Made by a program: the position numbers and the translations under genes. From positions 3,083 to 67,082 of the forward strand of contig JACOVF010000072.1 of the NCBI GenBank assembly GCA_016177465.1: a stretch of DNA of 64,000 nucleotides, read 5' to 3'. This DNA comes from Gemmatimonadota bacterium. GTDB taxonomy: Bacteria > Gemmatimonadota > Gemmatimonadetes > Gemmatimonadales > GWC2-71-9. Numbering within the stretch: the stretch's first letter is position 1; every line of letters begins with the position of its first letter. Shown here piece after piece: positions 5,345 through 49,327 of this stretch. The notes under the pieces were generated by a model. That model did not search any database. It worked only from the letters and a program-made list of their open reading frames with translations, and was not told where the DNA came from.

Positions 5345-5419
5345 GGGCGAATAGCTCAGCTGGTTCAGAGCGCCTGCCTTACACGCAGGAAGTCGGGGGT
5401 TCGAATCCCTCTTCGCCCA
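5345..5419 (+). tRNA. tRNA-Val (anticodon TAC)
   Basis: Hand-folded cloverleaf: acceptor GGGCGAA/TTCGCCC, D arm GCTC/GAGC, anticodon stem CCTGC/GCAGG with loop CTTACAC, T arm GGGGG-TTCGAAT-CCCTC; 75 nt, CCA not encoded. Confidence 0.9.
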
Positions 5420-7297: not shown

Positions 7298-7371
7298 GGG
7301 GCTGTAGCTCAGCTGGTTAGAGTGCCGGTCTGTCACACCGGAGGTCGCGGGTTCGAGCCCCGTCAGCCCCG
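7298..7371 (+). tRNA. tRNA-Asp (anticodon GTC)
   Basis: Hand-folded cloverleaf: acceptor GGGGCTG/CAGCCCC, anticodon stem CCGGT/ACCGG with loop CTGTCAC, T arm GCGGG-TTCGAGC-CCCGT; 74 nt. Confidence 0.9.
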
Positions 7372-8655: not shown

Positions 8656-10584
8656 ATGGCGAAGCCCGTCGTCCGCTTGCAGGTGGTCCAGGCATTGATG
8701 TTCGCAGGGCTTGCCGCGCTCGTGGGCCGGGCGGCGCAGGTCCAGCTCGTGCGGGGGGCGCGTTATGCCGCGGAGGCACAGGCCCAGCGCACCCAGCGGG
8801 TCGTCTTGGAGGCGCGGCGGGGGACGCTGTACGATCGTCACGGCACGCCGATCGCGCTCACCCAGGAGACGTATCACGTCGGGGTCGCGCCGAACGAGCT
8901 GCGCGACCCGGTGCGCGACGGCCGGCTCATCATGCGCCAGCTGCGCCTCACCCTCCGGCGGTGGGAGCACGGCCTGCGCAAGCGGTATGCGTACTTCCAG
9001 GGCCCGTACAGCGCGCTCGAGATCCACCCGCTCCGCGCGGTACAAGGCGTGCACCTCGAGCCTGTGCTCAACCGGTTCTACCCGTCGCCCGACTTCGCCC
9101 GCGCGGTCATCGGCCGGGTGGGCGCGGACGGGCGCGGCGCCTCGGGGCTCGAGCGCACCCTCGACAGCCTGCTAGCCGGAACGCCGGGAGCGGCGGTCGT
9201 GCTGCGCGACCGTGCGGGCCTGGAATACGAGTCGCCCGCGCGGCTTATCGCCGGGCCGGTCGCGGGGCACGACGTCGTGCTCACCCTCGACGCCGAGTTG
9301 CAGGAGATCGCGCAGCGCGCGCTCGATGAGGCGTTACGCCGCATGGACGCGGAGGGCGGGGACGTACTGATGCTCGACCCGGTCTCCGGGGAGGTGCTCG
9401 CCGTCGCCGCGCGGCATGACGACGGCGGCGCCCGCCCCAGCGCCTTCAGCGACGTGTTCGAGCCCGGCTCCACCGCCAAGATCTTCGCCGCGGCGGCGTT
9501 GCTCACGGGGAACCTGGTACGCCCCGACGAGCGGGTCTCGGGCGAGGGAGGCAAGTACCGGCTGGCCAGCCGTACCATCGAGGACGAACACCCGCTGCCG
9601 ACGCTCACCCTCGCGGACGCGATCCGCGTCTCCAGCAACATCGCGTTGGTCAAGTTCGCCGCCCGCCTCGCTCCGGAGGAGCAGTACAGGATCTTACGCG
9701 ACTTCGGCTTCGGCGCGCCCACGGGGATCGAGTTCCCGGCCGAGTCGCCGGGGCGGCTGCGCTTTCCGAAGGACTGGACCCGCCCCAGCGCGGCGAGCCT
9801 CGCGATGGGCTACGAGCTGTCGGTGACGCCGCTGCAACTCGCCGTCGCGTACGCCGCGCTCGGGAACGAGGGTGTCTTGCTCCAGCCGTCCCTGCTGCGC
9901 GAGATCCGCACCCCGGATGGGAAGGTGATCTACCGGCATCGTCCCGAGCCGGTCCGGCGCGTCGTGCCGCCCGAGGTGGCGGCGCAGCTGCGCGACCTCC
10001 TGCTCGGTGTGGTCGAAGGTGGCACCGGCGCCGAGGCGGCCCTCACCACCTTCCCGCTCGCAGCCAAGACCGGCACCGCGCGCCGCGTGGTCGATGGCCG
10101 CTACGCCCCGGGACAGTACACCGCGTCGTTCGCGGCGCTGTTCCCGGCCGACCAGCCCCAGCTCGTCGTGGTCGTGAAGATCGACAGCCCGCGGAGGGGC
10201 AGCTTTTTCGCCGCCCAGACGGCGGCGCCGGTGACCCGCTCGATGCTCGAGCAGGCGCTCGCGGCGCGCACCGTGGCGCTCGACCGCGCCCGGCTCTCGA
10301 CCAGCGTCCCGGCGCCCGAGTCCGCGCCGCTGAAAGGCGACGGCGGCGTGGTACCCTACGTCGTGGGCTGGCCCTACCGGCCCGACAGCGCCGCCACGGG
10401 CCCCGAGCGCGCCGTGCCGGACGTCGGCGGCCGCCCGATCCGCGAGGCGGTACATGCACTGCACCGGCGCGGCTTCCGCGTGGTGCTGAAGGGCTGGGGC
10501 GCGGTCGATCACACTTGGCCCGCGGCGGGGGAACGCGCCCGCGCAGGCTCGACGGTGACGCTGTTCGCGACGGATCGTCCATGA
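8656..10584 (+). CDS. ftsI: penicillin-binding protein / peptidoglycan transpeptidase FtsI with C-terminal PASTA-like domain
   Basis: 642 aa; SxxK (PGSTAKIF), SxN (VSSNIA), KTG (AKTGTA) motifs; C-terminal VPDVGGRPIREAVHALHRRGFRVVL resembles PASTA. Confidence 0.9.
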   Translation: MAKPVVRLQVVQALMFAGLAALVGRAAQVQLVRGARYAAEAQAQRTQRVVLEARRGTLYDRHGTPIALTQETYHVGVAPNELRDPVRDGRLIMRQLRLTLRRWEHGLRKRYAYFQGPYSALEIHPLRAVQGVHLEPVLNRFYPSPDFARAVIGRVGADGRGASGLERTLDSLLAGTPGAAVVLRDRAGLEYESPARLIAGPVAGHDVVLTLDAELQEIAQRALDEALRRMDAEGGDVLMLDPVSGEVLAVAARHDDGGARPSAFSDVFEPGSTAKIFAAAALLTGNLVRPDERVSGEGGKYRLASRTIEDEHPLPTLTLADAIRVSSNIALVKFAARLAPEEQYRILRDFGFGAPTGIEFPAESPGRLRFPKDWTRPSAASLAMGYELSVTPLQLAVAYAALGNEGVLLQPSLLREIRTPDGKVIYRHRPEPVRRVVPPEVAAQLRDLLLGVVEGGTGAEAALTTFPLAAKTGTARRVVDGRYAPGQYTASFAALFPADQPQLVVVVKIDSPRRGSFFAAQTAAPVTRSMLEQALAARTVALDRARLSTSVPAPESAPLKGDGGVVPYVVGWPYRPDSAATGPERAVPDVGGRPIREAVHALHRRGFRVVLKGWGAVDHTWPAAGERARAGSTVTLFATDRP

Positions 10585-12029
10585 ACCAGCTCGAGGGAAT
10601 CGTCGCGGCGTTGCGGCAGGCGCAGCAGCTCGTGGAGGCTCCTGCGGGGCTTCCCGAGATCACGGGCCTCACCGCGGACACGCGGAAGCTCCAGCGCGGG
10701 ATGCTCTACTGCGCGGTCCGCGGCGCGGTGCAGGACGGGCATCAGTTCGTGGGTGCCGCGGCGGCGAGCGGCGCGGCGGCCGCGCTGGTCGAGATGCAGC
10801 AGCAAGCGGCGCTGCCGCAGATTGTGATCCGGGACGGGCGCCGCGCCGCCACCGTCGCCGCCGAGGCGTGGTTCGGCCGGCCGGCGGCCCGCCTCAACCT
10901 GGTCGGCGTCACCGGCACCAACGGCAAGACGACCACCGTCACGCTCTCACGCCATGTCCTCAACGCGCTAGAGCCGACGGGCTCGATCGGCACCCTGGGC
11001 GCGTTCGACCCCCAGGGCGAGCCGGTGCCGAGCGAGGCGGGGACCCTCACGACTCCCGGCCCGATCGACCTCCAGGCGACCCTCGCCGCGCTAGTCGCCC
11101 GCGGCGCGCGCAGCGCCACGATGGAAGTTTCGTCGCATAGCCTCGACCAGGGGCGGGTGGACGGCCTCGTGTTCCGCGCCGCCATTTACACCAACCTGAC
11201 GCGCGACCACCTCGACTATCACAAGACGCTCGAGGACTACTTCAAGGCCAAGGCGAGGCTCTCGACCTACGTCGCCAGCAACGGGCTCGAGGTCGTGAAC
11301 GCCGACGACCCGGCGTGGCAGCGGCTGCGGCACGAGCGCCGCCGCGTCACCTTTGGCGAGCGAGGCGGGGAAGTCACGGCGAGGAAGATCACCGCCGATG
11401 CGCTCGGGTCGCGCTTCACCCTCGTCATGCCCGCCGGCAGCGCCGACGTGCGCCTGCCCCTGCTCGGCCGCTTCAACGTGGTGAACTCCCTCGGCGTCGC
11501 GGCGTGCGCCTGGGGGCTCGGACTCGCGGTCGAGGAGATCGCCGAACGGCTGACCGGAGCGCCGCAGGTGCCGGGGCGGATGGAGCGGATCGCGACCATG
11601 CCGTGCACCATCTTGCGCGACTACGCCCACACCCCCGACGCGCTCGAGCGGGCGCTCGAGACCGTGCGGCCGCTCACACCGGGACGGGTGATCGTCGTGT
11701 CGGGCGCCGGGGGCGACCGGGACCGCGGCAAGCGTGCCCCCATGGGCGAGAGCATGGTCCGCCTCGCCGACGTGGCGATCCTCGCATCCGACAACCCGCG
11801 CACCGAGGACCCGAACCGCATCCTCGACGAGGTCGCCGCGGGCATGGGCGGCCGGCCGCACGAGCGCTTCGTGGACCGCCGCGAGGCGATCGCGCGCGCG
11901 CTCGCGATCGCCCGGGCGGGCGATACGATCCTCCTCTGCGGCAAGGGGCACGAGACCTACCAGGTGATCGGCACCGAGAAGCTGCCGTTCGACGAACGCG
12001 CCATCGTGCGCGAGCTGGGGGCGCAATGA
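10581..12029 (+). CDS. murE: UDP-N-acetylmuramoyl-L-alanyl-D-glutamate--2,6-diaminopimelate ligase MurE
   Basis: Track ORF 10515..12029; ATG 10581 overlaps ftsI stop (ATGA); VTGTNGKTTT P-loop, DNPRTEDP motif. Confidence 0.9.
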   Translation: MNQLEGIVAALRQAQQLVEAPAGLPEITGLTADTRKLQRGMLYCAVRGAVQDGHQFVGAAAASGAAAALVEMQQQAALPQIVIRDGRRAATVAAEAWFGRPAARLNLVGVTGTNGKTTTVTLSRHVLNALEPTGSIGTLGAFDPQGEPVPSEAGTLTTPGPIDLQATLAALVARGARSATMEVSSHSLDQGRVDGLVFRAAIYTNLTRDHLDYHKTLEDYFKAKARLSTYVASNGLEVVNADDPAWQRLRHERRRVTFGERGGEVTARKITADALGSRFTLVMPAGSADVRLPLLGRFNVVNSLGVAACAWGLGLAVEEIAERLTGAPQVPGRMERIATMPCTILRDYAHTPDALERALETVRPLTPGRVIVVSGAGGDRDRGKRAPMGESMVRLADVAILASDNPRTEDPNRILDEVAAGMGGRPHERFVDRREAIARALAIARAGDTILLCGKGHETYQVIGTEKLPFDERAIVRELGAQ

Positions 12030-12133
12030 ATCCAGAATGCAGAATGCAAAAGGCGGAATTGAAAGGGGAGCTCGTGCCGCCGCGGGAACGCCGATCGATC
12101 CATTCTGCATTCTGCGTTTTGCATTCTGAATTC
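12028..12133. repeat. heptamer-periodic inverted repeat element E1 (GAATGCA units) filling the murE-murF gap
   Basis: Left arm GAATCCA GAATGCA GAATGCA AAAGGCG GAATTGA (12028-12062); right arm TCCATTC TGCATTC TGCGTTT TGCATTC TGAATTC (12099-12133) is its reverse-complement heptamer; shares the 9-mer CGGAATTGA (12054-12062) with E2. Confidence 0.8.
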
Positions 12134-12147
12134 GGGGAGGGGTGGTG

Positions 12148-13485
12148 ATGGTGTGGGACTCGGAAGCCATCTGCCACGCCCTCGGCGTGCCGGGGCACCC
12201 CGGCCTGCGCTTCACCGGGGTGTCCACCGACACGCGGCAACTCAAGGGCGGCGAGCTGTTCGTCGCGTTAACAGGCGACCGGTTCGACGCGCACGATTTC
12301 CTCGCGCAGGCAAGGGCCGCGGGCGCCGCGGGCGCCGTCGTGCGGCGTGGCACCACGCGCGTGGACGGGCTGGCGTTCTTCGAGGTCTCGGATACCCTGG
12401 TGGCCCTGGGACAGCTCGCGCACGCGCGGCGACGGCTCCTGCCGCCGGGGAGCCCCGTGGTCGCCGTCACGGGGTCGAGCGGGAAGACCAGCACCAAGGA
12501 GATGATCCGGGCCGCCCTGGCCTCGAAGTACCGCACCCACGCCACCACCGGCAACCTCAACAACCTGGTCGGGGTGCCGCTCACGATCCTTGCCGCCCCG
12601 GACGACGCGGCAGCGTTCGTCATCGAGGCCGGCGGCAGCCTCCCCGGGGAGATCCCGCGGCTGCGTGCCATCATCGAGCCGACGGTCGCGGTGATCACGA
12701 ACGTCGGCTACGCCCATGTGGAGGGCTTCGGGTCGTTCGAGGGGGTGTTGCGGGAAAAGGTCGCGCTCGCGGACGGTGTGGCCGTGGCGGTCGTGGGCAC
12801 CGATCCACCCGCGCTCGCCGCGGAGGTCCGGCGGCGCGCGCGCACCGTGGTGGCCGGGCGTCACCGGCCGGCAGACGTGCGGCCGGGCACCGCGGAGCTG
12901 GACGACGCGGGACGCCCCCGGATCCGCTGGAGGGAGCAGGAGGTCACGATCCCGGTCGCGGGCTTCCACCAGATCGACAACGCGATGCTCGCCCTGGCGG
13001 TGGCCGAGCAGGCGGGGATCGAGCCGTCCCGGGCAGTCCCGGCGTTGGCCGGCGTCCACCTGCCGGGCGGGCGGGGGGGCGTGACCGAACTCGGTCGGCT
13101 GACGGTTATCGACGACACCTACAACGCCAACCCGGCGTCGCTCCGGGCCGCGGTGGAGTTCGCTCGCTGGCTCGCCGCGCGGCGCGGCCGGCCGCTCGCC
13201 GTCGTGGTCGGCTCGATGTTGGAGCTGGGGCCGGAGAGTGACAAATTGCACGCGGCGGCGGCGCGCGAAATCGCGGCGCTGGACCCCGCGCTCGTGGCGG
13301 CCGTCGGCGCGTTCGCGCCGGCCTTCGAACCCGAACGCCGCGTGCTGGGCGGCCGGCTCATCACCGCGCCCGACGCCGAAGCGCTGGGGCCGAAGCTCCA
13401 GCAGGCGCTGCAGGGGAACGAAGTCGTCCTGCTCAAAGCGTCGCGCGGTGTCGCCCTCGAGCGGGTACTGGGCTACCTCCACTAG
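12148..13485 (+). CDS. murF: UDP-N-acetylmuramoyl-tripeptide--D-alanyl-D-alanine ligase MurF
   Basis: VTGSSGKTSTKEM P-loop; GGAGG 12136-12140 precedes ATG 12148 (GTG 12142/12145 also possible). Confidence 0.9.
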   Translation: MVWDSEAICHALGVPGHPGLRFTGVSTDTRQLKGGELFVALTGDRFDAHDFLAQARAAGAAGAVVRRGTTRVDGLAFFEVSDTLVALGQLAHARRRLLPPGSPVVAVTGSSGKTSTKEMIRAALASKYRTHATTGNLNNLVGVPLTILAAPDDAAAFVIEAGGSLPGEIPRLRAIIEPTVAVITNVGYAHVEGFGSFEGVLREKVALADGVAVAVVGTDPPALAAEVRRRARTVVAGRHRPADVRPGTAELDDAGRPRIRWREQEVTIPVAGFHQIDNAMLALAVAEQAGIEPSRAVPALAGVHLPGGRGGVTELGRLTVIDDTYNANPASLRAAVEFARWLAARRGRPLAVVVGSMLELGPESDKLHAAAAREIAALDPALVAAVGAFAPAFEPERRVLGGRLITAPDAEALGPKLQQALQGNEVVLLKASRGVALERVLGYLH

Positions 13486-13503
13486 CGGCGGGGATCACCA
13501 GAC

Positions 13504-14625
13504 GTGCTCTATCATCTGCTCGCACCGCTCGCCCGGCAGCACATCCTGTTCAATCTCTTCAATTACATCACCTTCCGGGCCGCCGGCGCGACCGTCACGG
13601 CGCTGTTGTGCGCGTTCGTGCTGGGACCGTGGATCATCCGGGCGCTGCGGGAGCGGAAGGTGGGGCAGGTGGTGCGGGCGGAGGGCCCGAGCAGCCACCA
13701 AGGCAAGCGCGGCACGCCCACGATGGGGGGCCTGATCATCCTCCTCGCGACCGTCGTGCCCACGTTGCTGTGGGCGCGGCTCGATACCCGCTACGTGCTC
13801 GTCGCGGTGGGGGCCACGCTCTGGATGGGGGCCATCGGCTTTATTGACGACTACCTGAAGATCGTGCGCGGCAAGTCGCAGGGGCTCGTCGCGCGGTGGA
13901 AACTCACGGGGCAGGTGTCGTTCGGCCTCGCGCTGGGGCTGGTCCTGATCCTCGCACCGCTCGCTGTGCGAGTCCCGCCGACCGGTACCCAGCTGCCGCT
14001 CCTCAAGTACATCCTGCTCGTGCTGCCGTGGCCGCTCTACTTGGGCTTCGTAACGTTCGTCGTCACGGCGAGCTCCAACGCCGTGAACCTCACCGACGGC
14101 CTCGACGGCCTCGCCACCGGGCTTACGGCGATCGTGGGGGGGACCTTCGCGGTGTTCGCGTACCTGTTCGGCCGCGTGGACGCCGCGCGCTACCTCGGCG
14201 TCCTCTACTTGTCTGGGGCGGGGGAGCTGGCTGTCTTCTGCGGCGCGCTGATGGGGGCGGCGCTCGGCTTCCTCTGGTTCAACGCGCACCCCGCCCAGGT
14301 CTTCATGGGGGACACCGGATCGCTCGCCATCGGTGGCGCGCTCGGCGCGGTGGCGATCATGCTCAAGGCCGAATTCCTGCTGCTGATCGCCGGCGGCGTC
14401 TTCGTGGCGGAGACGGTATCGGTGTTGCTCCAGGTCTACGTCTACCGCTGGAACAGGAAGCGCCGCGGCAAGGAATACGCCGACTCGCACAAGGTGTTCC
14501 GCATGGCTCCGCTGCACCATCACTTCGAGAAACTCGGCTGGGCGGAGCCGCAGGTGGTGATGCGGTTCTACATCCTCGGCGTGCTGTGCTCCCTGATCGC
14601 CCTCGCGACGCTCAAGATCCGATGA
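13504..14625 (+). CDS. mraY: phospho-N-acetylmuramoyl-pentapeptide transferase MraY
   Basis: 373 aa polytopic membrane protein, MLYHLL start, KRGTPTMGG and NAVNLTDGLDGLA motifs. Confidence 0.92.
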   Translation: MLYHLLAPLARQHILFNLFNYITFRAAGATVTALLCAFVLGPWIIRALRERKVGQVVRAEGPSSHQGKRGTPTMGGLIILLATVVPTLLWARLDTRYVLVAVGATLWMGAIGFIDDYLKIVRGKSQGLVARWKLTGQVSFGLALGLVLILAPLAVRVPPTGTQLPLLKYILLVLPWPLYLGFVTFVVTASSNAVNLTDGLDGLATGLTAIVGGTFAVFAYLFGRVDAARYLGVLYLSGAGELAVFCGALMGAALGFLWFNAHPAQVFMGDTGSLAIGGALGAVAIMLKAEFLLLIAGGVFVAETVSVLLQVYVYRWNRKRRGKEYADSHKVFRMAPLHHHFEKLGWAEPQVVMRFYILGVLCSLIALATLKIR

Positions 14626-15980
14626 TCGTTCCCGAGGCGTGGCGTCGTGGCGTCGTGGCCGTCATCGGGTTGGGCAAGAGCGGGGTGGCCGCGACGCAAC
14701 TGCTCGCGCGCGAGGGCGTGCGGGTCTACGCCAGCGACGCCTCGGACCATCCGTACGGCGGCGACGCGATCGCCGCGCTGCGCGCGCTGCCGGGCGTCGA
14801 GGTGGACGTGGGCCGCCACGACCTCGCCAAGATCCGTGCCGCGGCGGGGGTGGTGGTCTCCCCGGGGGTGCCGCCTGGCGCGCCGCCGCTCGCCGCGGCG
14901 CGCGAGGCGGGGGTCCCGATCGTCTCCGAGATCGACCTCGGGTTCCTCGTCCTGGAGCCGCAGGGCGTCCGCTGCATCGCGATCACCGGAACCAACGGCA
15001 AGACCACCACCACGGCGCTCGTGGCGCACCTGCTCCGGGTCGCCGGGCTCTCGGTCGAAGCGGCGGGGAACATCGGTCGGCCGCTCGCCGACATCGCGGT
15101 GTCGCCCGACCGCTACGCGTGGCTCGCCGTCGAGGTCTCGTCGTTCCAGCTGCACGACAGCCCCCACTTCGCGCCCGCGATCGGGATCGTCACGAACCTC
15201 GCCCCCGACCATCTCGATCGCTATCGGTCGGTGGAGGCGTATTATGCCGACAAGCGACTGCTCTTCCGCAACGCCGCGGACGACCACGTCTGGGTCCTGA
15301 ACGGCGACGACGCCGCCGTGCTGGAGCTCGCGCGCAGCGCCAAGGGGCGGCACGCCCTGTTCTCGCTCGCCCGACCCGCCGACGCCTGGTTCGACCGCGG
15401 CGAGCGGCGGCTGATGCTCGGTGGGACGGGCCTCGTGCCGCGCGATGCCCTCGCGCTCATCGGCGACCACAACGTCGCCAACGCCCTCGCCGCGGCGCTG
15501 GCGGTGCACGAAGCCGGTGTGTCGCCCGTCCTTATCGGGGAGGGGCTGCGCTCGTTTCACGCCCTGCCGCACCGCCTCGAGCCCGTGCGCGAGGTGAGCG
15601 GCGTGTTGTGGATCAACGACTCCAAGGCAACGAACATCGCTTCGACTGTCGTCGCCGTGGAGGCGATGTCTCGGCCGTTCGTCCTGTTGCTGGGCGGCCG
15701 GCACAAGGGGGAGCCGTACACCCGGCTCGCGCCGCTGCTCCAGGGGAAGTGCAAGCTCGTCATCGCCTACGGCGAGGCCGGCCCGCTTGTCGAACAGGAC
15801 CTCAGGGGCGCCCTGCCGCTCGAGGGCGGGGGCAGCTTCGAAGACGTGGTCGCGCGGGCGCGGCGCGCGGCGGCGCCGGGCGACGCGGTGCTGCTGTCGC
15901 CCGCCTGCTCGAGCTACGACATGTTCAACAACTATGAGGAGCGCGGCGCCGTGTACCGCCGTCTGGTGGAGGCGATGTGA
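14622..15980 (+). CDS. murD: UDP-N-acetylmuramoylalanine--D-glutamate ligase MurD
   Basis: In-frame part of track ORF 13896..15980; ATG 14622 overlaps mraY stop (ATGA); VIGLGKSGVA and ITGTNGKTTTT motifs. Confidence 0.9.
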   Translation: MIVPEAWRRGVVAVIGLGKSGVAATQLLAREGVRVYASDASDHPYGGDAIAALRALPGVEVDVGRHDLAKIRAAAGVVVSPGVPPGAPPLAAAREAGVPIVSEIDLGFLVLEPQGVRCIAITGTNGKTTTTALVAHLLRVAGLSVEAAGNIGRPLADIAVSPDRYAWLAVEVSSFQLHDSPHFAPAIGIVTNLAPDHLDRYRSVEAYYADKRLLFRNAADDHVWVLNGDDAAVLELARSAKGRHALFSLARPADAWFDRGERRLMLGGTGLVPRDALALIGDHNVANALAAALAVHEAGVSPVLIGEGLRSFHALPHRLEPVREVSGVLWINDSKATNIASTVVAVEAMSRPFVLLLGGRHKGEPYTRLAPLLQGKCKLVIAYGEAGPLVEQDLRGALPLEGGGSFEDVVARARRAAAPGDAVLLSPACSSYDMFNNYEERGAVYRRLVEAM

Positions 15981-17089
15981 CCGAGCTGCGCTGGGAAACC
16001 CGGCTGCTGGCCGTCGTCGCCGCCGTGCTCGTCGTGTTCGGCTTGGCGGCAGTGTACGGCGCTTCGAGCCTCCTCACCACCTCGGGGCGCCAGGTCGGGG
16101 CGTCGTTCGCGCTGCGTCAGGCGTTGGGCGCCGTGATCGGTGGGCTGCTCGCCACGATCCTCGCCCGGCTGGACTACCATGTCTGGCAGCGAGCGGCGTG
16201 GCCGCTCGTGGCGATCGTGGCTGTGCTGCTGGTGATCCCGCTCTTGCCGTTGACCCACGCGATTGCCCCCACCATCAACGGCGCCCGCCGCTGGGTGGAC
16301 CTTGGCGTGATGACGCTGCAGCCCTCCGAGTTCGCCAAGTACGCCGTGGTCGTGTGGACCGCGATGCTCGCCGCCAAGAAGGGCGACCAGATCCGGACGT
16401 TGCGCCGCGGTGTGCTGCCGTTCCTCGTGATCATCGGGCCCATCGCCGGCCTCATCTTCCTCGAGCCCAACCTTTCCATGGCGCTCCTCGTGGCGATGCT
16501 GGCCGGTGTGGTGCTGTTCAGCGCCGGTGCCCGCATCGGCCACTTCCTGGCGCTCGCCGTGGCGGCGATGCCGCTCCTCTATGGGGCCGTCGCGAACGCG
16601 CAGTACCGCCTCGCACGCGTGCTCAGCTTCCTCAACCCCGGCAGCGCGCCGAGCGAGGCGACCTGGCAGGTGCACCAGTCCCTGGTGGGTATCGGGGCGG
16701 GACAGGTGTTCGGCGTCGGCTTCGGCCAGGGACAGCAGAAGCTCGGCTACCTGCCGTACGCGTACTCGGACTTCATCTTCTCGACGATTGGCGAGGAGTG
16801 GGGACTCGTCGGCGTGGTGCTCATCGCCCTGCTGTTCGGCGTGTTCGTGTGGCTCGGCTTCCGGATCGCCAAGTCCGCGCCCGATCCGTTCGGGCAACTG
16901 CTCGCGGTCGGCATCACCGCGCTCGTGGGACTCGGCGCCGTGCTGCACATCGGCGTGAGTCTCGCCGTGATCCCGGCGACCGGCATCACCCTGCCGTTCA
17001 TTTCGTACGGCCGCTCGAGCCTCATCGTCTCCCTCGCCGCCACGGGCGTGCTGGCGAGCGTCGGGCATGCGCGGCGGAGGGCGGGATGA
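15977..17089 (+). CDS. ftsW: SEDS-family peptidoglycan glycosyltransferase FtsW
   Basis: 370 aa, about 10 TM; PSEFAKY and YAYSDFIFSTIGEEWG SEDS motifs; GTGA overlap with murD. Confidence 0.9.
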   Translation: MTELRWETRLLAVVAAVLVVFGLAAVYGASSLLTTSGRQVGASFALRQALGAVIGGLLATILARLDYHVWQRAAWPLVAIVAVLLVIPLLPLTHAIAPTINGARRWVDLGVMTLQPSEFAKYAVVVWTAMLAAKKGDQIRTLRRGVLPFLVIIGPIAGLIFLEPNLSMALLVAMLAGVVLFSAGARIGHFLALAVAAMPLLYGAVANAQYRLARVLSFLNPGSAPSEATWQVHQSLVGIGAGQVFGVGFGQGQQKLGYLPYAYSDFIFSTIGEEWGLVGVVLIALLFGVFVWLGFRIAKSAPDPFGQLLAVGITALVGLGAVLHIGVSLAVIPATGITLPFISYGRSSLIVSLAATGVLASVGHARRRAG

Positions 17090-17108
17090 CTACACTCCAA
17101 TCCGTCGC

Positions 17109-18197
17109 ATGAGGGTCCTCATCGCGGGCGGCGGGACCGGCGGCCACCTGATGCCCGCCCTCGCCCTCGCCCGCGCCCTTGCCGAGGCGCGTCCCGATGT
17201 CCAGCCGGTGTTGGTCGGCGCCCAGCGGGGAATCGAATCCCAGGTGCTACCGCGCTATCCCTTCCGCTACCATCTCCTCCCGCTCGAGCCGATCCACCGT
17301 CGCGCCTGGTGGCGCAACGTACGCTGGCCGCTCGTCGCGTGGCGAGTGTGGCGCGCCGTGTCGCGCGTGCTGGACGCAGAGCGGCCGGTACTCGTAATCG
17401 GCACCGGCGGGTACGCCGCCGGCCCGGTGCTGTGGCTCGCCCAGCGCCGCGGCCTCCCCATCGTGCTGCAGGAGTCGGATGCGTTTCCGGGGATCACGAC
17501 GCGCTGGCTCGCCCGGCGCGCGCGGCAGGTGCACCTCGGCTTCCCGGAAGCGCGGGCCCGGCTCCGACTCGGCCCGGCGACCGAGGTATTGGTGCACGGC
17601 AACCCGATTCGCCCGCCGGAGCCCGGAACGGGGGACCGCGCGGCAGCGGTGCGCGAGTTCGGGCTCGATCCCGTTCGGCCCTGCGTACTCGTGTTCGGCG
17701 GGAGCCAGGGAGCGCGGGCGATCAACGAAGCGCTCGCCGGCGCGCTCGCGCGCGGGCTGCTCGATCGGGTCAATGTGTTGTGGGGAACCGGCACCACGCA
17801 CGCCGAGCGCTACACGCCGTTCGCGCGGTCGGGGCAGGTGGCCGTGCGCGGATTCTTCGATCCGATGGCCCCGGCGTATCGGGCCGCCGACCTCGTCGTG
17901 TGTCGCGCCGGCGCGCTGACGGTCGCGGAGCTGTGCGCGTGGGGCAAACCGAGCGTGCTGGTGCCGCTGCCGACGGCGGCGGCGGATCACCAGGCGCACA
18001 ACGCGCGCGCGCTCGCCGCAGCCGGCGCGGCGATCCACTTGCCGGAGAAGGAGCTGACGCCGGGGGCCCTGGCAGAGCTGGTCAACGGACTTGCCGCAGA
18101 CCGGACACGGCTCGAGGCACTCGCGGCCGGCGCCCGGGTCCGGGGACATCCGGAGTCGTCCAAGGCTATTGTGTCAAGTATTTTGACGCTACTTTGA
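17109..18197 (+). CDS. murG: UDP-N-acetylglucosamine--N-acetylmuramyl-(pentapeptide) pyrophosphoryl-undecaprenol GlcNAc transferase MurG
   Basis: MRVLIAGGGTGGHLMPALALA start at ATG 17109 (track start 17067 also possible); the last ~12 codons are unusually AT-rich. Confidence 0.9.
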   Translation: MRVLIAGGGTGGHLMPALALARALAEARPDVQPVLVGAQRGIESQVLPRYPFRYHLLPLEPIHRRAWWRNVRWPLVAWRVWRAVSRVLDAERPVLVIGTGGYAAGPVLWLAQRRGLPIVLQESDAFPGITTRWLARRARQVHLGFPEARARLRLGPATEVLVHGNPIRPPEPGTGDRAAAVREFGLDPVRPCVLVFGGSQGARAINEALAGALARGLLDRVNVLWGTGTTHAERYTPFARSGQVAVRGFFDPMAPAYRAADLVVCRAGALTVAELCAWGKPSVLVPLPTAAADHQAHNARALAAAGAAIHLPEKELTPGALAELVNGLAADRTRLEALAAGARVRGHPESSKAIVSSILTLL

Positions 18198-18211
18198 TAA
18201 CTTCAAGCACT

Positions 18212-18239
18212 TTCGCAAGTTTAGTAGAATCCCTATATT
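18212..18239 (+). promoter_or_regulatory. putative internal dcw promoter (TTCGCA-16 nt-TATATT) in an AT-rich island at the murG 3' end
   Basis: 18183-18240 is a striking AT-rich patch with several -35/-10-like hexamers (TTGACG 18183, TTGATA 18194, TAGAAT 18225, TATATT 18234); ATG of murC at 18252 lacks an SD. Confidence 0.4.
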
Positions 18240-18251
18240 AGGCCCCCACAG

Positions 18252-19628
18252 ATGACCTTGTTTGCACCTGGGGATCCCCGTCCGATCCACTTTGTGGGCA
18301 TCGCCGGCGCGGGGATGGGTGCTCTGGCGCTGATCGCCGAGCACCAGGGTGTGAAGATAACCGGTTGTGATACTGACACTTCCGGGGCGGCTGATCTGAC
18401 CGCCCTGGGAGTGGAGGTCTGGCAGGGGCACGATGCCCGGCACGTGGAAGGCGCCCGGGCGGTAGTGGTCACTGCCGCAGTGGGCCGGGAGCACCCGGAG
18501 CTGGCGCGGGCCCGCGCTTTGGGGATTCCGGTCGTGCGCCGGGCGGATGCGCTGAGCGCGGCGGTAGCCGGCGGGACCGTCGTGGGGGTCGCAGGGACCC
18601 ACGGAAAGACGACCACCACGGTGATGGTCACGGAGGCGCTGGCGGCCGCCGGGCGGGATCCCACGGGACTCGCCGGCGGCCGCGTCGCAAAGTGGCGCGG
18701 CAACGCCCGGGTCGGAGGGCGGGACCTGTTCGTGGTCGAAGCGGACGAGTTCGATCGCGCGTTCCTGGCGCTCACGCCGGCGGTGGCGGTGATCAACAAC
18801 GTCGAGGCCGACCACCTCGAGTGCTACGGCACGATGACGGCGCTCGAGCAGGCATTCGGAGAGTTCGCGGGGCGGGCGCGGCGGGTGATCGCGGGGGCCG
18901 ACGATGCGGGCGCGGCGCGCGTGGCCGCGATGCTGACGGTGCCGGTGTGGCGGGTCGGGTTGGGCGTAGGCGCCGATGTGCGCATCCGGGAGCCGGAGTT
19001 CGATCCTTCCGGGTCCCGTGCGACCATCGAGGTGCCCGGCGGCCGGTCCGTCGGGTTGCGGCTGCGGGTGCCGGGGTTGCACAACGTGCGGAATGCCGCG
19101 GCGGCGCTGGCGGTGGCGCACGAGCTGGGCGCGGACGTGGATGTGTGCGCCGGCGCCCTCGCGGAGTTCAGTGGTGTGGGCCGACGCTTCGAGCGGCTTG
19201 GGGAGGCGGGAGGCGTCGTGGTGGTGGACGATTACGCGCACCACCCGACGGAGGTGGCCGCGACGGTCGCGGCGGCCCGGCAGGTGTTTCCCGGGCGCCG
19301 GTTGGTCGCGGTGTTCCAGCCGCATCTCTACTCGCGGACGGCGCTGCACGGTACGGCGCTGGGCCAGGCGCTCGCGGCGGCAGACGTGGTCGTGGTGGCG
19401 CCGATCTACGCGGCGCGCGAGGCACCGCTGCCCGGCGTGACGGCCGAGCTGGTCGCGCGCGGCGCGATCGCGGCGGGCGCGGCGACGGTGGCGGTGCGCG
19501 AGCGGGCCGAGCTCGCGGATCGGGTCGCCGAGGCCGTGCGTCCGGGCGACGTGGTGTTCACGCTGGGCGCGGGTGACGTGACGCGAGTGGGGCCTGAGCT
19601 GCTCGAACGGCTGGGGAAGGACCGGTGA
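18252..19628 (+). CDS. murC: UDP-N-acetylmuramate--L-alanine ligase MurC
   Basis: 458 aa; HFVGIAGAGMGALA and GTHGKTTTT motifs. Confidence 0.92.
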   Translation: MTLFAPGDPRPIHFVGIAGAGMGALALIAEHQGVKITGCDTDTSGAADLTALGVEVWQGHDARHVEGARAVVVTAAVGREHPELARARALGIPVVRRADALSAAVAGGTVVGVAGTHGKTTTTVMVTEALAAAGRDPTGLAGGRVAKWRGNARVGGRDLFVVEADEFDRAFLALTPAVAVINNVEADHLECYGTMTALEQAFGEFAGRARRVIAGADDAGAARVAAMLTVPVWRVGLGVGADVRIREPEFDPSGSRATIEVPGGRSVGLRLRVPGLHNVRNAAAALAVAHELGADVDVCAGALAEFSGVGRRFERLGEAGGVVVVDDYAHHPTEVAATVAAARQVFPGRRLVAVFQPHLYSRTALHGTALGQALAAADVVVVAPIYAAREAPLPGVTAELVARGAIAAGAATVAVRERAELADRVAEAVRPGDVVFTLGAGDVTRVGPELLERLGKDR

Positions 19629-20341
19629 AACCCCGCTTCCGGTTCCCCGCGCTCTCGCACCGCGCGTGGGTTGCGATCGTCGGCGGCGTCGGCGTCGTGG
19701 GGATCTGGTTCGGCGCGCCGCGCGCGCTGCGGCACCTCGAGTTCTTTCGGGTGCGACAGATCGAGCTCGTGGGGATTCGGAACCTCTCGCCCGACGCGGT
19801 GATCGGGGTGCTGCGACTGCAGCCCAGGGCGAGCGTATTCGACGACACGCGACTCCTGACTGCGCGCGTGCGCGGGCTGCGCGGCGTCGCCGACGCGAGG
19901 GTGGTGCGGCGGCTCCCGGCGGCGCTGAAGGTGATCGTGCGGGAAGTGGACGCGGTGGCGCTCGTGCCCGGCCCCCGGGGAATGGTGGTGGTCGACGCCG
20001 CCGGGCGCGCGTTGCCGTTCGATCCGGCGCGCTCGGGGCTCGATCTCCCGGTGGCGGCCGCGGCGGACTCCGCGGTGATCGGTGTCGTGGCGCTGGTCCA
20101 GGCGGTGGACCCGGCGCTGTTTCAAGACATCACCGCCGCGCGCCGCTGGCGAGGCAGCCGCGGCGACGTGCTCCTGGAACTGGATGCCCGCCGCGTCCTG
20201 CTGCGACCGGACGCCGGGCCGGAGGTCATTCGAGCCGTGGTGCAGGTCGCGCAGGATCTGGCCGCGAAAGCGCGCCCGTATGTGGAGCTCGACGCGCGCT
20301 ACGCCGGCCAGGTGGTCGTGCGGCGGAAGGCGAGCGCCTGA
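19625..20341 (+). CDS. ftsQ: cell division protein FtsQ
   Basis: 238 aa; N-terminal TM then POTRA-like FFRVRQIELVGIRNLSPDAV; GTGA overlap with murC. Confidence 0.8.
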   Translation: MKPRFRFPALSHRAWVAIVGGVGVVGIWFGAPRALRHLEFFRVRQIELVGIRNLSPDAVIGVLRLQPRASVFDDTRLLTARVRGLRGVADARVVRRLPAALKVIVREVDAVALVPGPRGMVVVDAAGRALPFDPARSGLDLPVAAAADSAVIGVVALVQAVDPALFQDITAARRWRGSRGDVLLELDARRVLLRPDAGPEVIRAVVQVAQDLAAKARPYVELDARYAGQVVVRRKASA

Positions 20342-21594
20342 TGGCGGAGCGCCAGCTGGTGGCGGGGCTCGACATCGGCAGCACCAAGACCTGCGCCGTG
20401 ATCGCGGAGGTCGTGGGCGACCTGCCGCGAACGCCGCTCGCCAAGGTGCTCGGCGTCGGGCTCGCCAAGAATGCGGGCGTGCGGCGCGGCGTGGTGCGTG
20501 ACATCGAGGAGACCACGCGCTCGGTCACGGCCGCGTTGCGGGACGCCGAGCGGATGGCGGGCGTGAAGGCGGCCGCCGTCACCTGCGGCATCGCGGGCGA
20601 GATGATCGCGACGCGGACTGAGGCGGGCGTCGTCGCGGTGACGGATGAGGAAATCGTGCCGGATGACGTGAAACGCGTTCACGATGTCGCCCGGGCGATC
20701 TCGATGGCGCGCGACACCGAGCTCCTGCACGAGATCCCGCAGGAGTACACGGTCGATCGACAGGGCAAGGTCAGTGACCCGGTCGGGATGACCGGGATGC
20801 GGCTCGAGGTGGAGATGTACCTGGTGACCGTGCAGTCCACGGCTGCCCAGAATCTCCGCAAGAGCGTGCAGCGCGCCGGCTACCGCGTCGCGGGCTTGGT
20901 GCTCGAGCCGCTCGCGGCGTCGTACGCGGTGCTGACCGACGACGAGAAAGAGCTGGGCGTCGCCTTGGTGGAGGTGGGCGGCAGCTCGACCGGCGTGGCG
21001 ATCTTCCACGAAGGAAAGATCCGCCACCTCGCGTCGCTCAAGTTCGCCGGAGCGCACGTCACGAACGACCTGGTGCAGGGGCTCGGCGTGACACACGTGG
21101 ACGCGGAGCGGCTCAAAGAACGCTACGGCGTCGCGTACGAGCCGCTCGTGGACGCGTCGGAGATGGTCAACCTCCCGTCCACCCCGGGCCAGGGCGCGCG
21201 TCAGGCGTCGCGGCAGCTCCTGGCGCACATCATCCACCAGCGTGTGGACGAGGTCTTCCAGCTGGTGGGGCGCGAGTTCGAGCGAGCGGGGTATGCGGGC
21301 GGACGGCTGCCGGCCGGCGTAGTGCTGACAGGCGGCACGGCGCACCTGCCGGGGATGGTGGAGCTCGCGCGCGAGGCGTTCGCCGTGCCGGTGCGCACCG
21401 GCACGCCCGAGCTCGGCATCTCGGGGCTCGTGGACAGTGTGCAGGCACCGCGCTACGCGGTGCCGGTGGGGCTGGTGCTGTACGCGGCGCGGAAAGTGGC
21501 GCAGGGCGCCGCCCCCGGCGGGCTGTTGGTCGGGGGGGCGGGAGTGGACAGATGGATCGGACCGCTCAAGCGGTGGCTGCAGGACTTCTTCTGA
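20341..21594 (+). CDS. ftsA: cell division protein FtsA
   Basis: In-frame part of track ORF 19666..21594; ATG 20341 overlaps ftsQ stop; actin-fold VAGLDIGSTKTCAVIAEV. Confidence 0.9.
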   Translation: MAERQLVAGLDIGSTKTCAVIAEVVGDLPRTPLAKVLGVGLAKNAGVRRGVVRDIEETTRSVTAALRDAERMAGVKAAAVTCGIAGEMIATRTEAGVVAVTDEEIVPDDVKRVHDVARAISMARDTELLHEIPQEYTVDRQGKVSDPVGMTGMRLEVEMYLVTVQSTAAQNLRKSVQRAGYRVAGLVLEPLAASYAVLTDDEKELGVALVEVGGSSTGVAIFHEGKIRHLASLKFAGAHVTNDLVQGLGVTHVDAERLKERYGVAYEPLVDASEMVNLPSTPGQGARQASRQLLAHIIHQRVDEVFQLVGREFERAGYAGGRLPAGVVLTGGTAHLPGMVELAREAFAVPVRTGTPELGISGLVDSVQAPRYAVPVGLVLYAARKVAQGAAPGGLLVGGAGVDRWIGPLKRWLQDFF

Positions 21595-21613
21595 TCGGGG
21601 ACCCGAGGGAACC

Positions 21614-22792
21614 ATGATCTTCGAGCTCGAAGAGACCGTATCGCAGAACGCGCGGATGAAGGTCGTCGGCGTCGGGGGCGGCGGCGGCAACGCCCTGAAC
21701 CGCATGGTCGATGAAGGCGTCACCGGCGTCGAGTTCATCTCGGTCAACACCGACGCCCAGGCCCTCCTCAACAACAGGGCCGACGTCAAAGTCCAGATCG
21801 GCAAGAAGCTGACGCGCGGCCTGGGCGCCGGCGCGCGGCCGGAAATCGGCCGCCAGGCGATCGAGGAGAATCGCGACGAGGTGCTGCACGCCCTCCAAGG
21901 CGCGGACCTGGTGTTCGTCACCTGCGGCATGGGTGGCGGCACCGGCACGGGCGCGGCCCCCATCATCTCCCAGATCGCCAGGGACCTGGGGACGCTCGCG
22001 ATCGGCATCGTCACCAAGCCGTTCCTGTTCGAGGGCCGCAAGCGGATGCGCCAGGCGGAAATGGGCATCGCCGAGATGCGCAAGCACGTGGACACGATGA
22101 TCGTGGTGCCGAACGAGCGGCTGCTCGCGGTGGTCGGCAAGGGGATCCCGTTCCAGGACGCCCTCAAGAAGGCGGACGAAGTGCTGCTCCACGCCACACA
22201 GGGGATCTCCTCGCTCATCTGCGTGACGGGGCTTGTGAACGTGGACTTCGCCGACGTGCGCACCGTGATGCAGAACGGCGGCTCGGCTCTGATGGGCACG
22301 GGCACCGGCCGCGGCGAGAACCGCGCGATGGAGGCTGCGCAGCAGGCGATCTCGAGCCCGCTGCTCGACAACGTCTCGATCGCGGGCGCCACGGGAGTGC
22401 TCATCAACATCACCGGTGGAGAAGACCTCACCCTGGGCGAAGTGACCCAGATCAGCGAGGCGATCCATGACGCCGCGGGCGATGAGGCGGAGATCATCTT
22501 CGGCGCCGTGAACGACCCCGCCATGCACGGCGAGGTGCGGATCACCGTCATCGCGACCGGCTTCGACCGGCAGACGGCTATGGCGGCAGAATCCGTCATC
22601 GGGAGCCGCGTCACGCCGGGCGTGCTGCCGTTCCAGCATCGGGTCTCCCGGCCCACGCCGGTGCCGCCGCCGGGATATGTGAAGCCAGCCGAGGCCCCGG
22701 TGCGCCGGTCCTCGGGCGGGAGCGCGTCCTCTGCCCCGCCTGAGGTGAATGAGATGGAGATCCCGACCTTCATCCGCCGTCAGATGGACTAA
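21614..22792 (+). CDS. ftsZ: cell division GTPase FtsZ
   Basis: ATG 21614 within track ORF 21437..22792; GVGGGGGNALNRM and tubulin signature GMGGGTGTGAAP; C-terminal IPTFIRRQ peptide. Confidence 0.95.
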   Translation: MIFELEETVSQNARMKVVGVGGGGGNALNRMVDEGVTGVEFISVNTDAQALLNNRADVKVQIGKKLTRGLGAGARPEIGRQAIEENRDEVLHALQGADLVFVTCGMGGGTGTGAAPIISQIARDLGTLAIGIVTKPFLFEGRKRMRQAEMGIAEMRKHVDTMIVVPNERLLAVVGKGIPFQDALKKADEVLLHATQGISSLICVTGLVNVDFADVRTVMQNGGSALMGTGTGRGENRAMEAAQQAISSPLLDNVSIAGATGVLINITGGEDLTLGEVTQISEAIHDAAGDEAEIIFGAVNDPAMHGEVRITVIATGFDRQTAMAAESVIGSRVTPGVLPFQHRVSRPTPVPPPGYVKPAEAPVRRSSGGSASSAPPEVNEMEIPTFIRRQMD

Positions 22793-24060: not shown

Positions 24061-24074
24061 GTTTCCCCACAATC

Positions 24075-24773
24075 GTGGACCTGTATCCCGCCGTCGACGT
24101 GCAGGGCGGGCGCATGGCGCGCGTGCCGCCGGGGCATCCTGACGACCCGCTCGCTGTGGCGCGCGCCTTCGCCGCGGCCGGGGCACGCTGGGTGCACTTC
24201 GTGGACCTGGACCGCGCGTACGGCCGGGGGGACAACCGCGCGCTGGCGCGCCGCTTCCTTGCGGATGCCGACCTCCGCGTGCAGGTGGGCGGCGGCCTCG
24301 CCACGGAGGAGGCGATCACGGAAATGCTCGACTGGGGCGCGGCGCGCGTCGTGGTCGGCGCCGCGGCGGCCGCCGACGCCGCGCGGCTCACCCGTCTCCT
24401 CTCCCGGCACGGGGCGGAGCGGGTGGCCGTCGCGATCGACGCGAAGGGCGGCCGCCTGGTGCCGCGCGGCGCGGCGGGTACCGGCGCGCTCGACCTCACC
24501 GTCGCGGAGTTGGCGCGACGCGTGCGCGCCCAGGGAATCCACACCGTGGTGTACACCGATGTGACACGCGACGGCGCGCTGGCCGGGCCGGACGTGGACG
24601 GCGCGCGCGCGATCGCAGCCCTGGGGCTCGACGTCGTCGCGAGCGGCGGCGTGGCGTCGCTCGAGGACCTGGCGCGCGTGCGGGCGGCGGGGCTCGCCGG
24701 CGCCGTCGTCGGGCGCGCGCTGTACGAAGGCCGCTTCACCCTCGCGCAGGCGCTCGCGTGTCTCACCGCCTGA
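24075..24773 (+). CDS. hisA: HisA/PriA-type phosphoribosyl isomerase
   Basis: In-frame part of track ORF 23622..24773; GTG 24075 gives (M)DLYPAVDVQGGR; VQVGGGL and ASGGVASLEDL phosphate-binding motifs; no other his genes nearby. Confidence 0.8.
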   Translation: MDLYPAVDVQGGRMARVPPGHPDDPLAVARAFAAAGARWVHFVDLDRAYGRGDNRALARRFLADADLRVQVGGGLATEEAITEMLDWGAARVVVGAAAAADAARLTRLLSRHGAERVAVAIDAKGGRLVPRGAAGTGALDLTVAELARRVRAQGIHTVVYTDVTRDGALAGPDVDGARAIAALGLDVVASGGVASLEDLARVRAAGLAGAVVGRALYEGRFTLAQALACLTA

Positions 24774-28814: not shown

Positions 28815-28824
28815 AATGATAATG

Positions 28825-49279: not shown

Positions 49280-49327
49280 GGCCCTCGCTCCTCGGACCCC
49301 TCAGAGATAGTCCAAATGCCTGTCCAA

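Follow-up and report, generated by a model that had tools for sequence, protein, structure and literature searches.

The stretch of DNA considered here (the window) comprises 64 kb, at 70% GC, from a soil Gemmatimonadales bacterium, and carries a division and cell wall (dcw) cluster closest to those of metagenome-assembled genomes (MAGs) of soil Gemmatimonadales (MurC ≤78% identity). Two non-coding palindromic elements of the window, E1 between murE and murF and E2 after recG, have arms of tandem 7-nt units that face their own reverse complement across a core, and a third such pair of arms, E3, lies inside a coding sequence. E1 and E2 belong to a non-coding palindromic repeat family of the soil Gemmatimonadales lineage, whose members are ~95-135 nt long, with arms of about four tandem GCGGAAT-type heptamers and a core of ~40-60 nt. 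The features concerned are the following.

12027-12029, plus strand: murE stop codon TGA, sharing bases with the left end of E1 (open reading frame (ORF) 10515-12029, with Pfam Mur ligase domains)
12028-12133: E1, palindromic element of the murE-murF gap; arms at 12028-12062 (left) and 12099-12133 (right), core at 12063-12098
12134-12147, plus strand: G-rich Shine-Dalgarno-like stretch GGGGAGGGGTG and murF GTG start (12145), abutting the E1 right arm
28812-28814, plus strand: stop codon of recG (product with RecG wedge and helicase domains), 10 nt before E2
28825-28919: E2, palindromic element filling the convergent gap 3′ of recG; left arm 28825-28850 (GGAATGC/GGAGTGC), right arm 28889-28919
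28918-28920, minus strand: stop codon (TAA on that strand, TTA as read) of a ~160-aa hypothetical gene, to which the end of the E2 right arm contributes bases
24758-26536, plus strand: 592-aa conserved hypothetical ORF, containing E3 and a solo array at 26118-26140
25279-25424: E3, inside that ORF; left arm 25279-25308, native coding core, right arm 25395-25424

Build of the elements in the window

As claimed in the first-pass annotation, which was made from the sequence alone, E1 begins within the murE stop codon and E2 spans a convergent gap, overlapping the stop codon of what is, from a GC3 (third codon position) phase plot, a real minus-strand gene, though one without a Pfam or NCBIfam match. 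The sequences of both elements read exactly as given there, with their period-7 arrays and inverted arms, and the 9-mer said to be common to them (CGGAATTGA, at 12054-12062 and 28845-28853) is present.

The E1 left arm has about five units of the (C)AGAATG type, and Tandem Repeats Finder (TRF) calls period-7 arrays at 12028-12059 (GAATGCA, 4.6 copies) and 12101-12133 (CATTCTG, 4.7 copies). The arms, 12028-12062 and 12099-12133, are 80% complementary over 35 nt, and the element folds as one long hairpin of −52.2 kcal/mol (z = −3.6), after which comes the tail GGGGAGG. Placing the murF start by homology with two relatives (L001 and L003) at the GTG at 12145 gives a gap of 115 nt; with the ATG at 12148 it is 118 nt. 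Elsewhere in the operon, ORF coordinates give junctions between overlaps of 4 nt and gaps of 13-54 nt, so that of the earlier statement that E1 occupies the only long gap, of 118 nt, what stands is that the gap is the longest.

In E2 the period-7 arrays are at 28821-28850 (AATGCGG, 4.4 copies) and 28892-28917. The stem of ~20 bp previously proposed is borne out by 20 nt at 95% complementarity (28827-28846 with 28900-28919), the core holds a small hairpin of its own (GGTCGCTCGGTATTCGACC, 28861-28879), and the whole folds as one long hairpin of −53.0 kcal/mol (z = −6.0), with AGAAGG as the tail after the right arm. Both elements, with arms of 26-35 nt and a total length of 95-106 nt, are without an internal ORF, have inverted ends as in MITEs (miniature inverted-repeat transposable elements), and are AT-rich (50-53% GC) for their genome. 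Allowing ≤2 mismatches, the motif GAATGCNGAATGC has 15 matches in the window compared with 4.16 ± 1.92 in shuffled sequence (none of 100 shuffles reaches 15), and 13 of the 15 are inside E1 or E2.

E3 has the same build within a protein-coding frame. Its left arm (CGGGAAG, 4.3 copies) encodes GKRERGSGKR and its right arm (CGCTTCC, 4.3 copies) LPASRFPFPG, the fold is at −93 kcal/mol (z = −4.4), and neither the frame nor the codon-position GC pattern of the 592-aa ORF, for which no Pfam or NCBIfam family was found, is interrupted across it. Taken together, the six arms of E1, E2 and E3 have TRF copy numbers of 3.9-4.7, all with period 7.

A repeat family at orthologous sites

The wider census covers the window and 160 related loci, 2.2 Mb in total: 80 loci around murC from species-representative genomes (L001-L080) and 80 around ftsZ from metagenomes (L081-L160; FtsZ 82-89% identity). 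A near-identical strain was sought in both collections and none was found, the best being at 78% for MurC and 89% for FtsZ. Inverted pairs were counted where the two arrays are ≤250 nt apart. Period 7 accounts for 306 arrays, compared with 6-55 for the other periods from 4 to 12, and for 106 inverted pairs, compared with at most 5 for any other period. Four units is the commonest array length (200 arrays, against 164 with three units and 64 with five), and the unit types, of which there are more than 40, are headed by GGAATGC, GGGAAAC, GGATTGC, GGGATGC and GGAACGC, or roughly GGRAWNC. The inverted pairs of the Gemmatimonadales loci are almost all at four orthologous sites, namely murE-murF (8 pairs), ftsW-murG (27), E3 in the 592-aa ORF (41) and the 3′ side of recG (21). 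At ftsW-murG, where the window has no element, one is present in ~30 of the 45 relatives having the junction, the 27 being those detected as inverted pairs.

Initial BLAST of the element cores against all loci gave no shared core, and it was motif search and full alignment with more relatives that revealed homology. From murE-murF, ftsW-murG and the window recG site, 29 distinct copies align end to end in the layout of four units, a core GGAATGGCAG.G.GAG.GTCGCTCGCCGA.TCGACC.TCC and four inverted units. Because the homologous core, of ~50 nt, is common to all three sites, E1, E2 and the ftsW-murG copies form a true multi-copy family. The earlier proposal that E1 and E2 are of one family is thereby sustained, as each aligns over its whole length, core included, to the other and to 27 more distinct copies, and the E2 core matches relatives’ copies at both murE-murF and ftsW-murG. 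A covariance model (R1) built from the alignment gives E1 75.5 bits and E2 75.1 bits, both being training members, and also gives 30.5 bits to E3, which was not in the training set. Scanning the window with it yields E1, E2 and E3 alone, with no further or degenerate copies, and on the 80 metagenome loci it yields 105 matches, all on the same four sites.

Several copies can be present per genome (L001, L090, L110, L116, L125), and in two of these (L090 and L116) murE-murF, ftsW-murG, recG 3′ and E3 copies are all present, with up to four in 18 kb. The same five have E1 orthologues, E1 being present in six lineages with differing units. Copies at both murE-murF and ftsW-murG in relatives are followed by the flank GGGTGGGG(C/T)G-GTG, and since this right flank is common to the two sites, the copying event probably carried a ribosome-binding stretch and start codon along. 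The first-pass annotation had set a dispersed family against conservation at orthologous junctions: the further copies and third insertion site agree with dispersal, but each copy is also vertically inherited at its orthologous junction over long periods. The elements pass by descent at a given site, disappear through deletion and are now and then copied. An assembly artefact was rejected, since the same elements are present in dozens of independent assemblies, and readings as a CRISPR, iteron or protein-binding array were rejected on the variation of unit sequence between copies.

Empty states of the murE-murF junction include a GTGA start/stop overlap (L111, L124), TGATG (L154) and a 7-nt gap (L011). 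Filled sites have GGGGCG..GTGA on both sides, a direct duplication of ~10-12 nt, of which empty sites hold one copy. In one relative (L003) the flanking duplication and a AAGAATTCG remnant are kept with the interior gone. On a MurF tree the carriers of E1 are distributed across one subclade, which includes the window on a basal branch, with clean empty sites nested among them; the simplest reading is that the element was gained once and later lost, precisely on at least three occasions and imprecisely on one, and the direct repeat could mediate the precise losses. The right flank of E1, GGGTGGGGCG-GTG, is also at ftsW-murG copies; around E2 the flanking duplication is absent. Sister lineages lack the elements at all three intergenic sites, some of the empty sites having overlapping stops or start/stop codons without any hairpin. 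In the window, the 19 nt between ftsW and murG (CTACACTCCAATCCGTCGC, 17090-17108, plus strand) resemble the core/right-arm border TACACTCCGCATTCC of relatives (L090, L115), and may be the fossil of a deleted family copy.

In other Gemmatimonadales lineages (L083, L084, L087, L104, L119, L143, L005, L106, L123) the MurF N-terminus has an in-frame extension of direct heptamer arrays, with units GTCGGAC, GGACGGT or GGGGCTC, that adds 24-48 nt in comparison with the 17-nt form.

After recG, a heptamer-armed hairpin is present in nearly every relative (~20), with units that are entirely different between relatives (GGAATGC, GCGGATT, GACGTCA, GCGGAAC, GTGCGCG, CAGGTGT, GGCTATC). In two relatives (L118, L128) the slot has a plain GC hairpin, and in some there is none. 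In many relatives (L090, L094, L107, L110, L116, L124 and others) lysS comes after recG with the same orientation, and in several the sigma-70-type promoter of lysS, TTGACA-N17-TAAGAT, comes directly after the recG 3′ hairpin. In the window two minus-strand genes, the ~160-aa hypothetical and one for a pyrroloquinoline quinone (PQQ) beta-propeller protein, are situated between recG and lysS, so gene order here differs between close relatives.

Within the 592-aa ORF, 41 related loci, which give 40 distinct aligned sequences and have 55-70% identity in the protein, keep both arms of E3. The units CGGGAAG, CGGGATG, CGGGAAA, GGGGACG and GGGATTC each face their own complement ~100 nt downstream, the GGG tract being nearly invariant and the other unit positions variable. 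The two encoded protein loops consequently co-vary, as in the pairs GKRERGSGKR/LPASRFPFPGW, GMRDARSGMRD/LPASRIPHPGW and GTRDGGRGTGK/LPASRVPRPGW. Because distant orthologues (below ~56% identity), from which the arrays are absent, carry the same protein segment, the core of E3 belongs to the original coding sequence, around which the arms came into being in situ.

The heptamer-armed build is also encountered, with unrelated units, in Longimicrobiales (L050) and, among Acidobacteriota, in Thermoanaerobaculia (L048, L066, L067), and the longest arrays, of 13-21 units, are in L017, L050 and L067. A separate observation concerns the murE-murF gap of Thermoanaerobaculia, where ~120 nt upstream of murF are conserved and apparently structured in three Acidobacteriota MAGs (L064:3745-3865, L066:3320-3445, L067:3255-3375) with the pattern GTGTTCTGTTCCGGCTCCG ... 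GGCAG ... GGGGAAGGG ... CGGAGCCGGAAGAGAACAC. The L067 sequence has no match in Rfam at gathering score, and the segment may represent a leader or small RNA not yet described.

Other features of the window are these.

5345-5419: tRNA gene, upstream of the dcw cluster
7298-7371: tRNA gene just before rsmH (mraW), upstream of the dcw cluster
21530-22789: ftsZ, the query for the metagenome loci
22792-24057: M23-peptidase ORF
26118-26140, plus strand: solo array, (GGGGAGA)x3.3, in the 592-aa ORF, encoding GGGEGRGER
32125-32146 (GGGGAAT/GGGGAAA) and 32290-32318 (CGGGAAG-type), G-rich on the minus strand: two solo arrays in MazG ORF 31875-32651
40781-40813, plus strand: solo array, (TGGGGAG)x4.6, in ComEC-like ORF 40635-42938
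40951-40975: solo array, of G-rich heptamers or G/A-rich, inside an ORF
48006-49232, minus strand: IS3-family transposase ORF (HTH_21 and rve integrase core), in a lower-GC stretch (61-67%, 46-52 kb)
49076-49813: truncated beta-lactamase-like ORF adjoining the IS3-family transposase

The reading frame is also kept across the array at 26118-26140, and orthologues have other units at that site (GGGGGAC in L002, GGGAGCC in L005). In every one of these intra-ORF solo arrays the G-rich strand is the coding strand. Cumulative GC skew climbs steadily on the plus strand (to +1.45) across positions 1-64000, which suggests that throughout the window this strand is the leading one; the dcw genes run in that direction too, and so do E1, E2 and E3, read with the G-rich arm first.

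Arm covariation and the level at which pairing is kept

In the family helix (31 bp) 91.2% of cells are paired, compared with 30-50% when the partner is slid by 1-3 columns, and in the E3 helix (30 bp, over the 40 distinct orthologues) the figure is 83.9% compared with 36-58%. Cells with a double change number 52 in the family, as against 15.9 ± 3.2 on shuffling, and 111 in E3, as against 43.7 ± 5.2; in neither case did any of 500 shuffles reach the observed number. Changes have occurred on both sides in 16 of the 31 family pairs. Whole units switch in both arms, GGAAT/ATTCC, GGATT/AATCC and GGAAC/GTTCC being examples, with AGAAT/ATTCT in the window E1.

Were the pairing selected in sense-strand RNA, G:U pairs would be expected to exceed A:C mismatches and the sense strand to fold better than the antisense. 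Arm mismatches of the G:T and A:C types number 38 and 32 in the family and 32 and 56 in E3, and at all four sites the fold energy is no different for the antisense strand than for the sense strand. One-strand RNA structure is thus not favored. The arm complementarity is Watson-Crick and strand-symmetric, and because both the wobble bias of an RNA and a strand bias in folding are lacking, it suggests maintenance at the DNA level, whether as process or as structure.

A function of the hairpins as RNA is still a serious rival. They would be 3′-end terminators or pause sites, barriers to exonucleases in the manner of the repetitive extragenic palindromic (REP) sequences and bacterial interspersed mosaic elements (BIMEs) in malE-malF, or RNase III sites splitting dcw operon mRNA into pieces that differ in stability; E. 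coli REPs stabilize upstream mRNA. Almost all copies have a left arm beginning 0-10 nt from the stop codon upstream, the long stems are stable (−44 to −94 kcal/mol) with strong compensatory covariation, and most relatives have a recG 3′ hairpin despite its unrelated units, two of them a plain GC one and several with the lysS promoter next to it. Given the position by stop codons and the recG 3′ slot, an RNA-level role, including translational coupling of stop and start, is possible. Set against it, besides the equal folding of the antisense and the lack of a G:U excess, which would be unusual for one-strand selection, are several findings on the elements themselves. There is no U-tract after the E1 and E2 stems. 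A scan for canonical terminators over 11000-30500 gave no site at either element and 4 sites in all, which is not above chance (5.8 expected), and a scan for canonical promoters gave nothing at the elements. Each of the three intergenic sites is without the element in sister lineages, in some cases with no hairpin of any kind there, of the many transcription-unit ends in the window one bears an element, and E3 is in mid-ORF, where termination would be senseless. With Rfam 15 at gathering score the window has two tRNAs only, and three further loci gave no element match; at permissive thresholds E1 and E2 gave only sub-threshold hairpins of eukaryotic microRNA precursors and one CRISPR direct-repeat model. 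The role in mRNA stabilization or termination implied by the first-pass annotation gains no positive support from these results, and as terminator or mRNA stabilizer the hairpin is plausible but unsupported. All told, we think it rather unlikely that function as RNA accounts for the elements.

Known relatives, origin and maintenance

The closest known analogue, and the same kind of object, is the set of inverted GGGAATC heptamer pairs of Xanthomonas. In X. campestris and X. axonopodis (~65% GC) there are 183-186 such arrays per genome, 70-75 cases being convergent inverted pairs (Rehm et al. 2015, PLoS One, PMC4692102). That report also gives a preference for four units, an intergenic location for 89-93% and an intragenic one for 7-11%, a mean distance of 28 nt from the nearest upstream ORF, and conservation of position between the two species for 83%, with length changing; function is left unresolved in it, polymerase slippage being proposed for the heptamer excess (PMC4692102). 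The high-GC host, the number of units, the convergent pairs on opposite strands able to form a stem-loop, the mostly intergenic location near an upstream stop and the retention of position while length and sequence vary are all paralleled here, with E3 as the intragenic exception; the units, GGAATGC, GGGAAAC, GGGATGC and CGGAATC, are similar too. The expectation in the first-pass annotation that no such family was known in high-GC non-cyanobacterial genomes is therefore contradicted by a published case. The differences are in the host phylum (Gemmatimonadota, with look-alikes in Thermoanaerobaculia and Longimicrobiales), in a unit that is not fixed but varies from site to site and changes in step in both arms, and in the absence from E1 and E2 of the GGG tract that defines the GGGNATC class as G-quadruplex-forming, though the E3 unit CGGGAAG has one. 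A homologous core across loci and a conserved intra-ORF pair were not found in the part of the Xanthomonas description available (PMC4692102).

The comparison that the first-pass annotation drew with REP/BIME hairpins and with the heptanucleotide short tandemly repeated repetitive (STRR) sequences of cyanobacteria is apt as analogy. REP/BIME sequences and REPINs likewise have two inverted arms and a spacer, forming a hairpin of ~100 nt in single-stranded DNA or mRNA, and are extragenic, often just after genes, multi-copy and more conserved in the arms than in the spacer (Bertels and Rainey 2011, PMC3116915). REP arms are, in contrast, not tandem heptamers, and the conserved GTAG and the tie to a REP-associated tyrosine transposase (RAYT) have no counterpart here in the E1 and E2 flanks or among ~45 window ORFs. 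Copy number also appears low here, with copies that are old residents, not recent insertions. Terminal inverted repeats, lack of coding capacity and homologous internal sequence at unrelated sites are MITE-like, but the window has no parent autonomous element with the same terminal repeats, the only transposase there being of the IS3 family.

These likenesses bear on the proposal that the elements are mobile and non-autonomous, moved in REPIN- or MITE-like fashion by a RAYT or IS200/IS605-type transposase encoded elsewhere. The homologous core at three loci, several copies per genome, orthologous sites filled in some lineages and empty in others, the direct duplication around E1, the low GC of the elements relative to their genome and the agreement of inverted arms, spacer and hairpin with the REPIN definition (PMC3116915) would all be accommodated. 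Yet the 105 matches in 80 loci on the same four sites speak of inheritance and not of transposition still in progress, a single gain with several losses suits the tree, and the variation of arm sequence between copies and lineages is a poor fit to a sequence-specific transposase. Neither GTAG nor CTAC is in or beside E1 (12000-12170) or E2 (28800-28940), the scan of ~45 window ORFs gave no Y1_Tnp match, and the sole transposase of the window, of the IS3-family DDE type, is without heptamer-type terminal repeats around it. With E3, moreover, the arms arose around native coding sequence. Mobility of this sort is accordingly improbable as the general explanation.

The Xanthomonas report also groups with its pairs the GGGGA(C/T)T repeats of Nostoc, and describes such repeats as forming G-quadruplexes (G4) in vitro (PMC4692102). 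If the G4 proposal made for those repeats is applied to the present elements, the four G-tracts of an array would form a G4 in DNA or RNA, the C-rich arm giving a G4/hairpin switch, and the mode of four units, the nearly invariant GGG of E3, the GGRAWNC form of the commonest units and the window solo arrays GGGGAGA, TGGGGAG and GGGGAAT are in its favor. The E1 unit CAGAATG is, however, without a G-tract, the E2 unit GCGGAAT/GCGGAGT has GG only, the recG 3′ units GACGTCA, GGCTATC, CAGGTGT and GTGCGCG cannot form G4, and covariation of the non-G positions with the other arm is unexplained. G4 would fit E3 and the solo arrays, but by the make-up of its units it fails for E1 and E2, and we consider it very improbable for the elements as a whole.

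The omega protein of plasmid pSM19035, which is of the ribbon-helix-helix type, binds heptad arrays. That the present arrays are sites for a protein with a 7-bp or 7-nt step, whether of that type or a cold-shock protein taking one heptamer each, would suit their strict period and short discrete form, with precedents in parS/omega sites (PMC9499535) and CspB binding heptamers (PMC4679880), but with more than 40 unit types, differing between sites in one genome and between orthologues, with arms 36-90 nt apart and with no candidate gene linked to the elements, a sequence-specific binding protein is unlikely because the units are so varied, and the proposal is very improbable.

As to the 7-nt period itself, heptanucleotides are the commonest class of long simple sequence repeats (SSRs) in most surveyed prokaryotic genomes, slippage being proposed (Mrazek, Guo and Shah 2007, PNAS, via PMC4679880). 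The excess of period 7 among repeats of 5-11 nt and the mostly non-coding location are shared with those SSRs and with the STRR sequences of Calothrix and other cyanobacteria, which are described as plain direct arrays, whereas here there are a complementary second arm and a shared core. The TAACTGA repeats of marine Beggiatoaceae are also intergenic arrays (of 2-6 units) by coding-sequence boundaries, with patchy distribution, but are of one fixed unit, direct and just upstream of start codons, with one inverted case (MacGregor 2015, PMC4679880). In the reports consulted on Xanthomonas, STRR, Beggiatoa and REPIN repeats, occurrence in the present phyla, a drifting covarying unit, a homologous core, strand-symmetric complementarity and a conserved intra-ORF pair were not found reported.

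What we propose is that the elements are resident palindromes. Replication slippage in 7-nt steps would create, resize and homogenize the arrays, in keeping with the variation in unit number (11 units in the left arm of the L154 E3 against ~3 in the right; arrays of 13-21 units elsewhere) and with the independent growth of direct arrays of differing units in the MurF N-terminus of other lineages. The arms would then be kept complementary by a process at the DNA level, either intrastrand hairpin-templated copying or gene conversion between arms, as in quasipalindrome mutagenesis, and selection on a sense-strand RNA fold would not be what keeps them paired; hairpin-templated correction is established for quasipalindromes. 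A copy stays at its site over long evolutionary times, with both arms changing unit sequence in step. Losses are in some cases precise, between short flanking direct repeats, and in others imprecise, leaving fossils, and new gene junctions have occasionally been reached by copying. Persistence is envisaged where a long hairpin can be tolerated, that is directly after stop codons, between cistrons that once overlapped and whose stop and start codons the stem would bring near each other again, and in loop-coding parts of ORFs. Transcripts would carry a stem of 25-35 bp that should block 3′ exonucleases or serve as an RNase III substrate, an effect that we take to be a consequence of the elements and not the reason for their existence.

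Taken overall, with slippage-sized arms, arm-to-arm templating, tolerated copies, losses by deletion and rare copying, we put this account at about an even chance, and several points weigh against it. Slippage and templating are indirect readings of the data, and the same covariation and symmetry would follow if pairing were selected in DNA, or in the RNA of both strands. The distance between the arms, 36-90 nt, exceeds that of the quasipalindromes in which experiments have demonstrated templated mutation. Retention of both E3 arms across so many loci looks like constraint, and the presence of some hairpin in the recG 3′ slot of most relatives, even a plain GC one (L118, L128), hints at use. 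The 7-nt step, the preference for four units, the GGRAWNC units and the route of spread are left without explanation. A stronger version, to which we lean less, is that of clade-wide maintenance at the nucleic-acid level of ~30-bp heptamer palindromes, through a homogenizing drive or a reader of the hairpin, powerful enough to persist in a coding gene and dictating two loops of its product, in all three frames; it is possible, and put forward tentatively.

The excess of heptanucleotides in many prokaryotes, and since 2015 the inverted pairs of Xanthomonas, have been on record with neither origin nor function understood. To these the present lineage adds ~70 distinct orthologous or paralogous copies in which both arms are seen changing unit together, evidence of strand-symmetric Watson-Crick complementarity that points to DNA over sense-strand RNA, and, as the most surprising part, a conserved intra-ORF pair in which the repeat overrides protein sequence. 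A descriptive oddity is in this way turned into testable alternatives, conversion or drive on the one hand and hairpin function on the other. For annotation, the elements explain odd long gaps in otherwise tight operons and odd low-complexity protein loops in Gemmatimonadota and Acidobacteriota. Should maintenance at the nucleic-acid level prove true, the puzzle of the 7-nt repeat excess would gain a tractable system with an evolutionary read-out.

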